The notes: generated by a model not told the origin, from the letters alone. A DNA stretch of 32,000 nucleotides from Moritella sp. JT01 (GCF_001574435.1 NZ_LOCN01000033.1:6408-38407); one strand, 5' to 3'; positions 20,024-30,650 are shown, counted from the stretch's first letter. Numbers and translations are program-made.

Positions 20024-20146
20024 TGGGCAATGATGTCTTGAACACTTGAGATACCGCCCAGTACGCCACAGCATGATTAGAAAGAAAACCAGCTTCTGGT
20101 GTCATTTCATCGCGGTGCTCACTACCAAGCTGCTCTACAACGCCAC
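20024..20146 (-). pseudogene. aroC: Relic of chorismate synthase gene (internal aroC fragment, about 41 codons, frameshifted)
   Basis: Hand alignment with 29781-29904 of the intact aroC gives 8 substitutions plus a 1-nt deletion (GCCAC-AGCATG vs GCCACCAGCATG), in the same orientation. The reverse translation [25 protein letters not shown] matches Aro[26 protein letters not shown] and then shifts frame. Homology ends sharply at 20146 and fades by about 20014. Confidence 0.85.
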
Positions 20147-20414
20147 GTGATTTTCGCATGGGTTCTCATAAGGCTGGTATGAGCATTGTGTCAGTGCTTT
20201 TTCTACCTGACACAAATACACCTTAAAAACCTAAAATATCAATAGTTAAGGTAAAATAACGACCGCTTAGAGAAGATAAACTGAGGCACTAAAATAGCAG
20301 TAATATAATTTAGATTTAAAGCCTTTGCTTCTTTGCAAAGACTCCAAGTTCTTGCTTTTTCATCATTACCTACCCTCAATATAATTAAGTTAATGATAGG
20401 TAATTCATAGTAAA

Positions 20415-22970
20415 TTAAGCGGGTTGTAGCGTTTCGCTAATGTCTGCCTTTTCCGTGGCAATGAGTCCATCACTTGGTAAAAACTCTTTACCCCAACCCA
20501 AACCTGCAATTTCTTCTTCGATCATAGCTGCAATCTCAGCTTTATCATAACCAACGCCAGCTAAAATCTCTTGTGTAGAATGACCAAATCGCTCCGTTGG
20601 AGTAACAGATTTAATAAATGCTTCTACTGGACGAATAGCATAATGATCAACTTGTGTTAATTTGTGGCCACTAGGGTGATTTGGATAGATAGAAAAAGCA
20701 TAGCTTCCCCTGTCTATCCCTGCTGTCCCATTAATTTCACGACTGTATTGTTTACGTAAATCTTCAATGTTACGGGGGATGACGGCTGCAATATCAATCT
20801 GGTGTAGCGCATCGATCCATGTTTGAGATTTTTTGGTTACCAAAATGCTTGTTAAAAATACTTTTTTATCTTGAGCATCAGTCAGTTTTTCTAAACCTGA
20901 GATAGTGGCTAATTTATCTTGCTCTTGCATGTTAGAGTCAATGAAAATCCAACCGTCTAGGGTCTTATAGAAGTGTGACAAAGCATTATTCCCAAGTGCA
21001 TCACGACCAGACGGTTCATTAAATGGTGCTCGGCCTTCATAATCAAAAGCAAATGGGAGTTGCGCTAAATTTGTTACAGCTGAAAGCGATGTTCTTGCAC
21101 GGCTTACTTCACCAGTACGTTGTAAATGGAATAACGATGTTGCCATCGCTAAACCGCCAGCGAAACCACAATTAACATCGAGAGTACCCAGATGAGCATG
21201 TTCTTCTGGCGTTGCTATTCCACCAAATCTGCTCATGATGCCACTGTTAGCTTGGATAATATCATCGTAACCAATATAGTTTGTTTTAGGGCCTTCCAAT
21301 GGACCACCTAAACAATCTAAACGGCAGAACAATATTTTTGGATTAATAGCTAATAGGCTTTCTGAATCTAGGCCTAAATGTACCATTTGTCTGCTTGGCG
21401 CATTAATTAAAACAATATCACTTTCTTGTACTAAACGATTGAATACTTCACGACCTTTGTTTGACATTATATCTATTAACGCGCTCTTTTTACCCATATT
21501 AGTTAGGAAAGTAAAAAACGTACCGATCAGTGGGTCATACATAGGAGAGACAGTATCAATTTTTGTTACTTCTGCGCCAAAACGTGTGAGTAATGCCGCA
21601 GCATGTGGTCCTGCAATAACGTTTGTTAAATCAAGGATTTTAATACCGTCTAACCAACCTTTATGACTAACAATTGTTGAAGCTTCGGGTAAGTTACGCG
21701 CAGCTTCGTTGACTGATAATAAATCTAAAGCACGTGCAACGGTCACATTCATACGTGCTGTCGGTGTGACCATATCTGTTGCACATTCTTCTAACCATGC
21801 AATTGGGCCTGGCTGTTTCATTAAACCATACTGTGAGTCTTCAACTTTAACAATAAGACCTGATTTTTCACAATGTTCACTGTTTACCCATTCTTGCGTG
21901 GTACGATGTGGTGCACCTGGAATCTTTCCTTCACCAAAAATCCCCCCCCATTCTTCAGATGTCTTTGTAAGGAATGCCACTTTCATTTTTGTTGATATAA
22001 TATCGGCCCATTTTTTAGGTAGTGGATAAACACCGATTGATGTTTCTCCATCCCATTCATTTGTTGGTAAATGTAGATTTTCAACTTCAGGTAAACCATC
22101 ACTAATAAGTTCTTCATAAATGCCTAATGCCTTTAATGCACGTTTTGCATGATTTCGATGTGATGGGCAAACGCAATAAAACATGCGGCCATCTGCACAT
22201 AAATATGTACGATAAAATGGGTCTAAGTACTCTTGAAGGTCCTCGTAACTTAAATCCATTTCGATATTGTTTGCTTGACGATATTCAATTTCATGATCAC
22301 GCATTGTTTTATAACGATTTGGTAAATTTTCAACAACATAAGAATTATATGATAAGCCTTCCATTAGCGCTGCAACAATTGGCACCTCTATATGATCACC
22401 TCGGCCGCTTTTTTCTCTGGCATAAAGCGCCAAAATAACAGCGCTTGCGGCAAGTACGGTTGCGTATGAAGAACCTAATGGCAATGGAGAAAAACTTGGA
22501 TTTAAACCCATCAAGACTCGGTTATACCCCATATCACTAAACGCACCGGATGCAGCTGAAACGATTGCTTCCGTTGCTTTCCAGCCACTACGCAGTTCAT
22601 CATTACTTGCAAACCCAGGTACAGATAATGTAACCAAAGCAGGATTTTCTTGGCGTAGTGTTTCAAAATCAATGCCTAATTTTTTCATTACACCAGGGCG
22701 AAAGCTTTCTAGTACAACATCCGCTTTTGCTATTAAGCTCAGCGCTTCTTTCTGTTGGGTTGGGTCTTTCAAGTCTAGACGAAGACAACTCTTATTACGG
22801 TTCAATATGGCGTTGGCAGGGTGATCCCAAAGAGGGCCTGTCGGTGGATCAATGTGAATGACCGTTGCGCCTAAGTCAGCGAGAATCATTGCAGCACCTG
22901 GGCCAGCTATTTGCTGACCAAAATCGATAATAGAAATACCTTTAAGTGGTAATTGAATTTGAGTTGTCAT
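20415..22970 (-). CDS. dddD: DddD-type DMSP CoA-transferase/lyase (two tandem class III CaiB/BaiF CoA-transferase domains)
   Basis: 851 aa. There are two CaiB-like repeats, each opening with the family motif: GISIIDFGQQIAGPGAAMILADLGATVIHID (aa 11-41) and GIKILDLTNVIAGPHAAALLTRFGAEVTKID (aa 442-472). This tandem architecture, plus the divergent BCCT / Fe-ADH / MmsA-like ALDH / LysR neighbours, equals the dddD / dddTBCR arrangement described for Marinomonas sp. MWYL1. Confidence 0.75.
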   Translation of the reverse strand: MTTQIQLPLKGISIIDFGQQIAGPGAAMILADLGATVIHIDPPTGPLWDHPANAILNRNKSCLRLDLKDPTQQKEALSLIAKADVVLESFRPGVMKKLGIDFETLRQENPALVTLSVPGFASNDELRSGWKATEAIVSAASGAFSDMGYNRVLMGLNPSFSPLPLGSSYATVLAASAVILALYAREKSGRGDHIEVPIVAALMEGLSYNSYVVENLPNRYKTMRDHEIEYRQANNIEMDLSYEDLQEYLDPFYRTYLCADGRMFYCVCPSHRNHAKRALKALGIYEELISDGLPEVENLHLPTNEWDGETSIGVYPLPKKWADIISTKMKVAFLTKTSEEWGGIFGEGKIPGAPHRTTQEWVNSEHCEKSGLIVKVEDSQYGLMKQPGPIAWLEECATDMVTPTARMNVTVARALDLLSVNEAARNLPEASTIVSHKGWLDGIKILDLTNVIAGPHAAALLTRFGAEVTKIDTVSPMYDPLIGTFFTFLTNMGKKSALIDIMSNKGREVFNRLVQESDIVLINAPSRQMVHLGLDSESLLAINPKILFCRLDCLGGPLEGPKTNYIGYDDIIQANSGIMSRFGGIATPEEHAHLGTLDVNCGFAGGLAMATSLFHLQRTGEVSRARTSLSAVTNLAQLPFAFDYEGRAPFNEPSGRDALGNNALSHFYKTLDGWIFIDSNMQEQDKLATISGLEKLTDAQDKKVFLTSILVTKKSQTWIDALHQIDIAAVIPRNIEDLRKQYSREINGTAGIDRGSYAFSIYPNHPSGHKLTQVDHYAIRPVEAFIKSVTPTERFGHSTQEILAGVGYDKAEIAAMIEEEIAGLGWGKEFLPSDGLIATEKADISETLQPA

Positions 22971-29063: not shown

Positions 29064-29525
29064 TTAATGTTTAACGTGTTCTTTTTTATTGCTGAAAAGT
29101 ACATAACTCATATACCAAACAACCAACACATTAATCAAAAATATACCGATATTAAAGAAACTAGCATGGGTAATTATTTCATATAGCTCGAAGGGTATAT
29201 ATATAGCCCCAGAAACCAATGCGAACCACTCAGTCCAGACTAATCCACGCCATAAGCCAAAAGCTTCAATAAATCGAATAACCGAATAACCAAATGCTGC
29301 CAACGCTAGCAATACCATCTGAGAGTCAGTTAGGTCGCTCGCGGCATTCAGAAACACACTGGATAAATGGCTCGCAGGGTTTAGATGAAAGTGCCTAACA
29401 AGCAACTCGGCTAATTGGTGAATATCACGCCCAGCTAAGGCATGAAGTCCAAAACCAACCAAAAGAGAAACGCTCCCTTTGAACCCTTCCAATACTGCAA
29501 TTGCACGTACACCTTTATTTTTCAA
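29064..29525 (-). CDS. DUF2127-family small inner-membrane protein
   Basis: 153 aa with four hydrophobic segments. The pattern AIAVLEGFKG...HLNPASH...IRFIEAFGLW...WFALVSGAIYIPFELYEI recalls DUF2127 proteins. The start codon is TTG (29525-29523), and an in-frame TAA lies 8 codons upstream. It starts 36 nt after the aroC stop. Confidence 0.6.
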   Translation of the reverse strand: MKNKGVRAIAVLEGFKGSVSLLVGFGLHALAGRDIHQLAELLVRHFHLNPASHLSSVFLNAASDLTDSQMVLLALAAFGYSVIRFIEAFGLWRGLVWTEWFALVSGAIYIPFELYEIITHASFFNIGIFLINVLVVWYMSYVLFSNKKEHVKH

Positions 29526-29561
29526 AAATATAGCGACCTTTTTTACTTAATGTAACTAAAA

Positions 29562-30650
29562 CTACATATTTGGTGTGTCTGTTACTACATGTAGGTTTTG
29601 CGCACGGTGTCTTAGCAAGTGATCCATTAGCGTGATAGCAAGTTGTGCTTCAGCGATTGGCACTGCACGAATACCTACGCATGGATCGTGACGACCTTTG
29701 GTAACCACTTCAATTGCATTACCAAACTTATCAATTGATTTACCGGGAATGGTAATACTTGATGTTGGCTTCATCGCAATGTGAGCAATGATGTCTTGCC
29801 CACTTGAGATGCCACCCAGTACGCCACCAGCATGATTAGAAAGGAAACCATCTTCTGGTGTCATTTCATCGCGGTGCTCACTACCAAGCTGTTCTACAAC
29901 GCCAAAACCATCACCAATCTCAACACCTTTCACGGCATTAATGCTCATTAACGAATGGGCGATTTCAGCATCTAAACGATCGAATACCGGCTCACCTAAA
30001 CCAACGGGCACACCTTCAGCAACCACAGTTACTTTGGCACCCACTGAGTTACCTGATTTTTTCAATCCACGCATGTATTCATCAAGCGCTTCTAATTTGC
30101 TTGGATCAGGAAAGAAGAATGGGTTTTGTTCAACTTGATCCCATTGCAGTGCTTCTGCTTTAATTGGGCCCAGTTGTGATAAATAACCGCGAATAACAAT
30201 ACCGTGTTGTTCTTTTAAGTATTTCTTCGCAATAGCACCAGCCGCTACACGCATTGCCGTTTCACGCGCCGATGAACGACCGCCACCACGGTAATCGCGA
30301 TGCCCAAATTTTTGATGATAAGTATAATCAGCGTGACCAGGACGGAAGGTATCTTTAATATTTGAATAATCTTGTGAACGTTGATCGGTATTTTTGATCA
30401 TCAGACCAATTGAAGTACCTGTGGTTTTACCTTCAAAAATACCCGAAAGGATCTGAACTTCGTCAGCTTCACGACGTTGAGTGGTATAGCGAGATGTGCC
30501 AGGCTTACGGCGGTCAAGATCAAACTGCAGATCTTCGAGTGAGATTTCGAGTCCTGGAGGGCAGCCGTCAATGATGCACCCAAGTGCTGGTCCATGGCTT
30601 TCTCCGAATGTGGAGATCTTAAATAATTGCCCAATACTATTCCCTGCCAT
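29562..30650 (-). CDS. aroC: Chorismate synthase
   Basis: 362 aa (E. coli AroC is about 361). Motifs: [19 protein letters not shown] and [11 protein letters not shown]. It lies downstream of prmB, as in E. coli. Confidence 0.95.
29781..29904 (-). repeat. Copy of the aroC-derived direct repeat inside intact aroC (partner of 20024-20146)
   Basis: See the pseudogene entry. 124 nt, about 93 percent identical by hand count, in the same orientation. Confidence 0.85.

Follow-up and report, generated by a model that had tools for sequence, protein, structure and literature searches.

We sought to determine why a 32,000-nt stretch of the draft genome of Moritella sp. JT01 (GCF_001574435.1, NZ_LOCN01000033.1:6408-38407; "the window" below means this whole stretch) carries, next to an intact chorismate synthase gene (aroC), a short and frameshifted piece of the same gene, in the same orientation, on the far side of a set of ddd genes for catabolism of dimethylsulfoniopropionate (DMSP). 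A reading of the sequence alone, made without database searches, had taken the two copies as the brackets of a ddd module brought in by a circular element. Comparison with other Moritella genomes leads to a different answer: the JT01 locus appears to be a fusion of two layouts, both of which are extant in the genus, and the aroC relic is probably a recombination scar, left when ddd DNA was imported once, by homologous crossing-over at one end and illegitimate joining at the other, and trimmed later by the loss of about 270 nt. The relic itself is functionless, and is neither an attachment site nor a working element.

The loci used for comparison come from Moritella sp. DT_65 (L001), M. dasanensis (L002), a metagenome-assembled genome (L003), Moritella sp. 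5 (L081; CP056122), the CP056120 strain (L082), three metagenome contigs (L083-85) and M. viscosa (L090, L086, L094 and L095); a few further loci are mentioned where they are needed.

A partial copy of aroC and its two joints

The direct repeat pairs window positions 20022-20145 with 29780-29904, with 8 substitutions and one 1-nt deletion between the copies and a longest identical run of 40 nt. When the aroC region was compared by blastn with the remaining window, the relic was recovered (125 nt aligned, 92.8% identity, E 1e-47), nothing else having an E value below 0.01, in agreement with the repeat as it had first been described (20024-20146 versus 29781-29904 within aroC, with the same 8 substitutions and 1-nt deletion). 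The AroC protein matches the relic by tblastn as two frame-shifted halves (joint E 6.5e-13), the frame being broken by the deletion at gene position 823, near window position 20069. No match to aroC codons 291-362 was found by tblastn elsewhere in the window, and the relic is the sole extra piece of aroC. The similarity had been thought to decay gradually near 20014-20024, but the alignment with M. viscosa places a second abrupt joint there: because the last 9 nt of the repeat (20022-20030) follow the M. viscosa sequence that flanks a major facilitator superfamily (MFS) transporter gene, and not aroC, the part derived from aroC extends over about 20031-20145 only, and one of the 8 substitutions originally counted belongs to the MFS flank. 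As judged by sequence comparison, the relic is confirmed as a genuine second, partial and dead copy of aroC.

Of the seven substitutions left in the relic proper, five are at third codon positions and four are synonymous; the binomial probability of such a bias under neutrality is about 0.045-0.07, in what is a small sample. The bias suggests that the progenitor of the relic was a separately evolving functional allele, distinct from the present aroC, and the replacements D267A and G284V, together with the frameshift, may represent neutral decay that came later. The relic is 93.9% identical to the aroC of JT01, and 93.0% identical to that of M. viscosa, L081 and L082 alike. One of its character states, at position 840, recurs only in M. 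viscosa, and two are shared with JT01, which does not settle its affinity.

Both ends of the relic were resolved to the base by three-way alignments, of L081 AAp1, JT01 and aroC at one end, and of aroC, JT01 and M. viscosa at the other. At Joint 1 (20145/20146), aroC codon 249 is fused to the interior of an amino-acid permease gene, AAp1. The JT01 sequence reads GAGAACCCATGCGAAAATCACG-TGGCGT-TGTAGAGCAG, in which the left part corresponds to L081 AAp1 and the right part to aroC from codon 249, and the hexanucleotide TGGCGT occurs in both parent sequences. JT01 positions 20140-20167 are 100% identical to L081 positions 12925-12952 (28 nt), and L081 AAp1 matches window positions 20140-20199 at 80% identity by tblastn (E 7e-6) and at 85% over 60 nt by blastn. 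At Joint 2, the microhomology is imperfect: in aroC sense, JT01 has TTGCCCACA where aroC codons 289-290 have TTGCTCACA (consensus TTGCYCACA). The JT01 sequence reads GACATCA-TTGCCCACA-GAACGCTCATCC, in which the left part is aroC, and the right part equals what, in M. viscosa, directly follows the T-tract of T_aroC, the intrinsic terminator hairpin of aroC, and runs to the MFS stop codon. The sequence of the scar joint is CACGTGGCGTTGTAGA. A third deletion joint, at GCACTGA, leading from the AAp1 terminator to the AAp1 interior, may tentatively be placed within the stretch at 20205-20264.

A 54-aa open reading frame (ORF) on the minus strand, at 19995-20159, has its start in the permease fragment, antisense to it, and continues across the relic as far as the frameshift. 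We considered it as a gene and treat it as incidental.

Locus layouts in other Moritella genomes

The interval between aroC and sdaC is hypervariable across Moritella. At the empty site, represented by L001, aroC is followed by 22 nt, T_aroC, 10 nt and the sdaC terminator, and in L002 and L003 the interval holds a hybrid histidine kinase gene. The ddd layout, seen in L081 and L082, reads prmB-aroC-T_aroC-dddRCBT/dddD-AAp1-AAp2, followed by DUF386, lacZ, lacI and gal genes; it is the same in L083-85, and AAp1 is the neighbour that follows dddD in genomes of the Moritella sp. 5 type. Neither the relic nor a DUF2127 gene at aroC is present in L081 and L082. The MFS layout of M. viscosa is sdaC-MFS-T_aroC-aroC-prmB, with an intact aroC and no ddd genes. 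In a third layout, found in L096 (a 4040-bp contig of JGI 3300011297), the order is aroC-T_aroC-280 nt-MFS-AAp1-AAp2, so that MFS fills the slot where Moritella sp. 5 carries its ddd island; the L096 AAp1 is 98.6% identical to that of L081. Each of L001, L003, L081-83 and M. viscosa keeps the T_aroC hairpin behind its aroC gene. The relic was found at no other Moritella locus compared. A search of ddd-free relatives had been proposed along with the sequence-only reading, and indeed none of them carries it, L001 having aroC and T_aroC directly beside the sdaC terminator. The MFS gene itself is intact (394 aa) in L086, L094, L095 and JT01, and in L090 (10001-11185) it is split into ORFs of 252 and 136 aa, which suggests a pseudogene.

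Read in aroC sense, i.e. along the minus strand, the JT01 window contains prmB, aroC, the DUF2127 gene, T_aroC, dddR, dddC, dddB, dddT and dddD, then a conserved spacer of about 150 nt, a stretch of about 60 nt without a match, the AAp1 fragment and the relic, and then the MFS 3′ flank with MFS, a galM fragment, the sdaC terminator and sdaC; dddR, dddC, dddB, dddT and MFS are on the opposite strand. Since AAp1 adjoins dddD in the Moritella sp. 5 type, while the MFS flank meets T_aroC and aroC in M. viscosa, this arrangement is best described as a hybrid, apparently formed by fusion of a left arm of the ddd layout with a right arm of the MFS layout; each layout is still found in the genus. Alignment can be regarded as having established both joints, the parent sequences of each and the occurrence of the two layouts.

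The extent of collinearity on either side is in line with this description. From 13613 up to the joint at 20030, JT01 is collinear with M. viscosa L090 at 92% identity (95.6% to L086 over 17489-20030); on the other side, collinearity with the ddd-layout genomes starts at 20336 (L081 and L082) or 20265 (L083-85), extends to 29052, and resumes through aroC-prmB. In view of the collinearity over 13613-20030, the relic holds the position and the orientation of the real aroC of M. viscosa, and it would appear to be the remnant of an aroC that formerly stood beside MFS. Relative to the M. viscosa arrangement, JT01 lacks about 270 nt, comprising codons 291-362, the spacer and T_aroC. The identity of MFS to its M. 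viscosa counterpart equals that of the adjoining core genes, and the same galM relic lies alongside it in both. The proposal that the distal 220 nt of the partial copy were lost, possibly when the MFS segment arrived, is therefore not supported, as MFS was resident (M. viscosa has sdaC-MFS-T_aroC-aroC) and the loss is attributable to the microhomology deletion of about 270 nt. Nor are the repeats the borders of the island: the empty-site comparison with L001 and M. viscosa places these at T_aroC (29014-29047) and at the sdaC terminator or MFS flank, and not at 29904, and the left repeat abuts the AAp1 fragment, not ddd DNA. The view that the DNA between the copies is not core DNA was borne out, the ddd genes and DUF2127 not being adjacent to aroC in five other Moritella lineages.

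Origin of the relic

The course of events that we consider probable would begin with entry of ddd-layout DNA into a cell with the MFS layout, followed by homologous recombination on the aroC/prmB side; we infer the uptake, its polarity and the position of the crossover. A homologous anchor is available, as aroC and prmB are 93-96% identical among lineages. The other incoming end, broken within AAp1, would have been joined illegitimately to codon 249 of the resident aroC via TGGCGT, so that a complete incoming aroC with the ddd island came to lie upstream, and codons 249-362 of the resident aroC, its terminator and MFS were left downstream. A deletion of about 270 nt between the 9-mers TTGCTCACA (codons 289-290) and TTGCCCACA (just past the terminator) would then have removed codons 291-362 and the second terminator, and the relic would subsequently have gathered point mutations and its 1-nt deletion. 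In the reverse polarity, which would be mechanistically equivalent, the ddd-layout chromosome would be the recipient, and the incoming DNA would have had the MFS layout, a broken aroC end and its anchor at the sdaC side. The relic could hardly serve as an excision site, because its recombination with aroC would delete the ddd island and truncate aroC.

Site patterns group JT01 with M. viscosa in the SNF gene (164:53:36) and in the exo/endo-phosphatase gene (154:55:36), and with L001 in prmB (45 versus 20), aroC being star-like and trpA/trpB mixed. These patterns are weakly suggestive of import of the left arm into a chromosome resembling that of M. viscosa. The donor cannot be assigned, since the identity matrices of the flanks are star-like. 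Over the island (20330-29060), the identity of JT01 to L082 is 99.3-99.8% throughout, against only about 95% in the flanking aroC and prmB; the identity of the island to L083 is about 92%. In L081, the island is mosaic, with blocks at 99.8% and others at ~92%. The values for L082 and L081 both argue that island DNA was recently exchanged among lineages by homologous recombination.

It should be kept in mind that several observations weigh against a single import. The incongruence of the flanks is not specific evidence for it, because the genus recombines heavily, as seen from the mosaic island of L081 and the mixed patterns of trpA/trpB. The relic is known from one draft genome alone. The crossover was not located, as the window stops 192 nt past prmB and aroC is star-like, and no intermediate with aroC codons 249-362 and a second terminator was found; a metagenome scan with the MFS flank GATGAGCGTTCTGTGGGCAA gave three matches, all of them unrelated to the window, and no intermediate form. 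Finally, known AAp1 alleles match the AAp1 fragment at no more than 82-85% identity, in contrast to 99.5% between the island interior and L082, and positions 20265-20336 are missing from L081 and L082. At least one further exchange must therefore be assumed, and the scar either predates the later homologous exchange of the island interior or is independent of it.

If, as originally proposed, a circular ddd element carrying aroC from codon 249 to the stop codon had entered the chromosomal aroC by a single Campbell-type crossover that regenerated the gene, the final topology would be the same, including the abrupt start at codon 249 beside island-side DNA, and TGGCGT could indeed have served to circularise a donor fragment with one end at aroC codon 249 and the other inside AAp1. 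Such an integration should, however, have left a mosaic aroC. The nucleotide identity of aroC to four related Moritella lineages is 95-96%, and its positions 1-745 and 746-1089 are 95.3 and 95.1% identical to L001, 95.0 and 96.2% to L081, 95.4 and 96.8% to L082, and 89.0 and 90.4% to L003, with no step between the 5′ and 3′ parts against L001-L004, L081 or L082, either at 29904 or downstream; equal similarity of the two parts was the very result that the sequence-only reading had named as its own refutation. Moreover, prmB would have remained recipient DNA, yet, unlike the right flank, it shows no grouping with M. viscosa, the supposed element ends inside two genes, and there is no integrase. 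Scans of all sizeable ORFs in the window against Pfam and NCBIfam revealed no integrase, transposase or insertion sequence (IS), and ARAGORN reported 0 tRNA or tmRNA genes, just as had been noted from the sequence; no integrase is present among the called genes of the island in L081 and L082 either. We therefore regard the circular element as unlikely. What stands of the earlier proposal is that acquisition duplicated part of aroC, the relic being the second, partial copy, and, of the two mechanisms it had offered, homology-facilitated recombination, which fits best; a decayed integrative element, with neither an integrase nor the logic of attachment (att) sites, does not.

An origin within a single genome, which we also hold to be unlikely, would require tandem duplication of the segment from aroC codon 249 to the AAp1 interior in a ddd-bearing ancestor, joined at TGGCGT, with deletions removing most of the copy. 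Tandem duplications joined at microhomologies are common (established knowledge; see PMC3784515), and the relic shares the state GAAATG with the aroC genes of JT01, L081 and L082 against L001-L004. The third-codon-position bias (5 of 7 sites, a small sample) would rather suggest a separately selected allele, no ancestor with ddd-AAp1 and MFS on one chromosome, as this scheme needs, has been observed, and a deletion of >10 kb would have had to end exactly where the MFS flank of M. viscosa meets T_aroC. The microhomologies at both ends, TGGCGT and TTGCYCACA, could also be those of a templated patch, if, during repair or replication across an AAp1-MFS deletion, a strand had switched to aroC 9.7 kb away, copied about 115 nt and then returned. 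This is quite improbable, since a copy of the JT01 aroC should begin identical to it and 4 synonymous differences are found, and since nothing in such a process predicts a patch placed and oriented exactly as is aroC beside the MFS flank in M. viscosa. As for chance similarity or an assembly artefact, the occurrence of the relic in one draft genome alone would be compatible with it, but the match has an E value of 1e-47, a diverged copy does not resemble a collapsed or chimeric assembly, and both joints have identifiable parents in independent genomes, so that we give this explanation hardly any credence. The hybrid origin, with one homologous and one illegitimate joint, thus remains the reading that we prefer.

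A broader interpretation would view the T_aroC hairpin as a reusable insertion site at which integrase-free cassettes are swapped in the aroC-sdaC interval, where the ddd island, MFS, DUF2127, the hybrid histidine kinase gene and a permease/lac/gal block are found. It is prompted by the hairpin repeat that brackets the island of L083-85 and by the presence of MFS in the ddd slot of L096: in L083, the ddd island is flanked by a perfect 33-nt direct repeat of the T_aroC hairpin, AATACCCATCAGCTTAGGTTGATGGGTATTTTT, at 687-719 and 9488-9520, and the repeat also occurs at L084 5153-5185. Only the aroC-proximal copy is kept in JT01 and Moritella sp. 5. We consider the interpretation doubtful; if it were true that a trans-acting recombinase or hairpin-directed mechanism uses T_aroC, the relic would be a by-product of a new cassette-exchange hotspot.

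Known systems and the genes of the window

The event inferred for JT01 belongs to a known class, that of illegitimate-recombination scars and displaced gene remnants, and calls for no new mechanism. Homology-facilitated illegitimate recombination (HFIR) is attributed to Acinetobacter, Streptococcus pneumoniae and Pseudomonas stutzeri by sources cited in PMC5361080 (de Vries & Wackernagel 2002; Prudhomme et al. 2002; Meier & Wackernagel 2003), and it occurs in E. coli conjugation (PMC3240628). Like HFIR products, JT01 has a joint at a short G+C-rich microhomology (TGGCGT), aroC/prmB homology on the opposite side, and no recombinase or mobile-element features; its microhomology joint between unrelated sequences and the existence of both parental arrangements are two features by which HFIR would be recognised. 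It differs in that it is deduced from natural genomes and was not observed in the laboratory, in that its homologous crossover is unmapped, and in that the outcome left a partial duplicate of the anchor-side gene. No gene bearing on DNA uptake, whether by competence, conjugation or transduction, lies in the window. One-sided homology with an illegitimate joint, leaving displaced 3′ remnants of resident genes, has been proposed for type VI secretion system (T6SS) and Rhs loci of Vibrio (PMC5361080). As in the Rhs, contact-dependent inhibition (CDI) and T6SS effector-immunity arrays (Kirchberger et al. 2017, PMC5361080), an incoming complete gene displaces the resident one and a 3′ fossil is left downstream; unlike those remnants, which usually retain a functional immunity gene under selection, the JT01 relic is a 115-nt frameshifted internal piece, and it stems from a single event, not from an array.

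Integrative islands and prophages that target genes or tRNAs, with their att repeats, resemble JT01 in having a direct repeat of a housekeeping gene, accessory genes in between and an intact copy of the gene. In JT01, however, there is no integrase and no tRNA or tmRNA target, the repeat is internal to the gene (codons 249-290) and stops short of the stop codon, and its edges are not those of the island, the outer repeat abutting fragments of two other genes. A site-specific integrative island was accordingly rejected on four counts, namely the lack of an integrase, repeats that do not lie at the borders, a target gene that is not mosaic and the lack of a tRNA. A direct repeat of a gene fragment around accessory genes is not, on its own, evidence for an integrative element, and caution is due in similar cases. 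It is rare in natural genomes for both illegitimate joints of an acquisition to be readable to the base with both parental layouts extant, and the locus illustrates how ddd genes may spread among deep-sea and cold-water Moritella by ordinary recombination, without mobile-element machinery, beside a housekeeping gene.

The features of the window are collected in Table 1. Genes were assigned by Pfam and NCBIfam scans of all sizeable ORFs, and terminators by a terminator scan.

Table 1. Features of the aroC-sdaC interval in the Moritella sp. JT01 window, by window position
Feature	Coordinates	Strand	Evidence or remark
Bidirectional sdaC terminator	18578..18605	.	Left edge of the variable interval relative to the empty site
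galM (aldose epimerase) relic, 63 nt	18613..18675	-	tblastn, residues 304-324, 85.7% identity, E 1.3e-6
MFS transporter gene and 3′ flank	18793..20021 (gene 18793-19998)	+	Pfam PF07690; ~95% identity to M. viscosa
Joint 2, 9-nt imperfect microhomology TGTGGGCAA	20022..20030	.	aroC codons 289-290 to MFS 3′ flank
aroC relic proper, 115 nt, codons 249-289	about 20031..20145	-	7 substitutions and a 1-nt deletion
Joint 1, 6-nt microhomology TGGCGT (ACGCCA on + strand)	20140..20145	.	aroC codons 249-250 and AAp1
AAp1 internal fragment, about residues 394-414 of 477	20146..20204	+	tblastn, blastn, alignment
Scar DNA, about 60 nt, without clear match	20205..20264	.	Alignments
ddd island	20265..29013	.	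Family assignments and island comparisons
dddD	20415-22970	-	Double class III CoA-transferase
dddT, BCCT transporter	23451-25010	+	Family assignment
dddB, Fe-ADH (iron-containing alcohol dehydrogenase)	25035-26234	+	Family assignment
dddC, MMSDH-type (methylmalonate-semialdehyde dehydrogenase) aldehyde dehydrogenase	26313-27854	+	Family assignment
dddR, LysR regulator	28064-28987	+	Family assignment
T_aroC, aroC intrinsic terminator hairpin	29016..29047	-	Terminator scan; conserved right boundary of the ddd island
DUF2127 membrane-protein gene	29064..29525	-	Pfam PF09900, E 1.5e-45
Intact aroC (chorismate synthase, 362 aa)	29562..30650	-	NCBIfam NF003793, E 1.9e-149; Pfam PF01264
Repeated segment within intact aroC	29780..29904	-	Gene positions 747-871, codons 249-290

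By their gene families, the ddd genes are assigned to a predicted dddD-type DMSP catabolism cluster. The set of genes and the divergent organisation of dddD and dddTBCR are those of Marinomonas sp. MWYL1, whose dddD-dddTBCR cluster for DMSP catabolism was reportedly described by Todd et al. in 2007; the Moritella cluster differs in its location in the aroC-sdaC interval, and Moritella DddD is only about 68-72% identical to its Oceanospirillales homologues. The DddD protein encoded here is identical to KXO07111.1, an entry whose annotation names it DddD from Moritella sp. JT01; exact-protein look-ups for JT01 DddD (P0123) and for the MFS ORF (submitted with a longer start) returned no record. 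Our literature search found no paper linking Moritella and dddD.

The DUF2127 gene had been counted as part of the ddd module, but it occupies a separate variable slot at 29045-29561, between the aroC stop codon and T_aroC, and is missing from the ddd-positive Moritella sp. 5 type; at this site, it is also missing from L001-L004, L081-83 and M. viscosa. The order aroC-DUF2127-T_aroC-dddR recurs in a second lineage (L091, positions 1-1867), with 90.8% identity in DUF2127. Given its placement ahead of the terminator, DUF2127 would be co-transcribed with aroC. The spacer from the aroC stop codon to the terminator ranges from 15 to 513 nt among lineages, and in several of them it contains G+C-rich hairpins. 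A DUF2127 homologue, 77% identical, lies near sdaC in L092.

The galM relic, which sits between MFS and the sdaC terminator and is present in M. viscosa too, implies that a lac/gal block, as in Moritella sp. 5 and L092, formerly stood here and has since been deleted. Elsewhere in the window, a porin gene (Porin_4, 12377-13378) with its flanks (window positions 12253-13612) is missing from the otherwise collinear M. viscosa locus, and a porin homologue, 79% identical, is present in M. dasanensis (L002).

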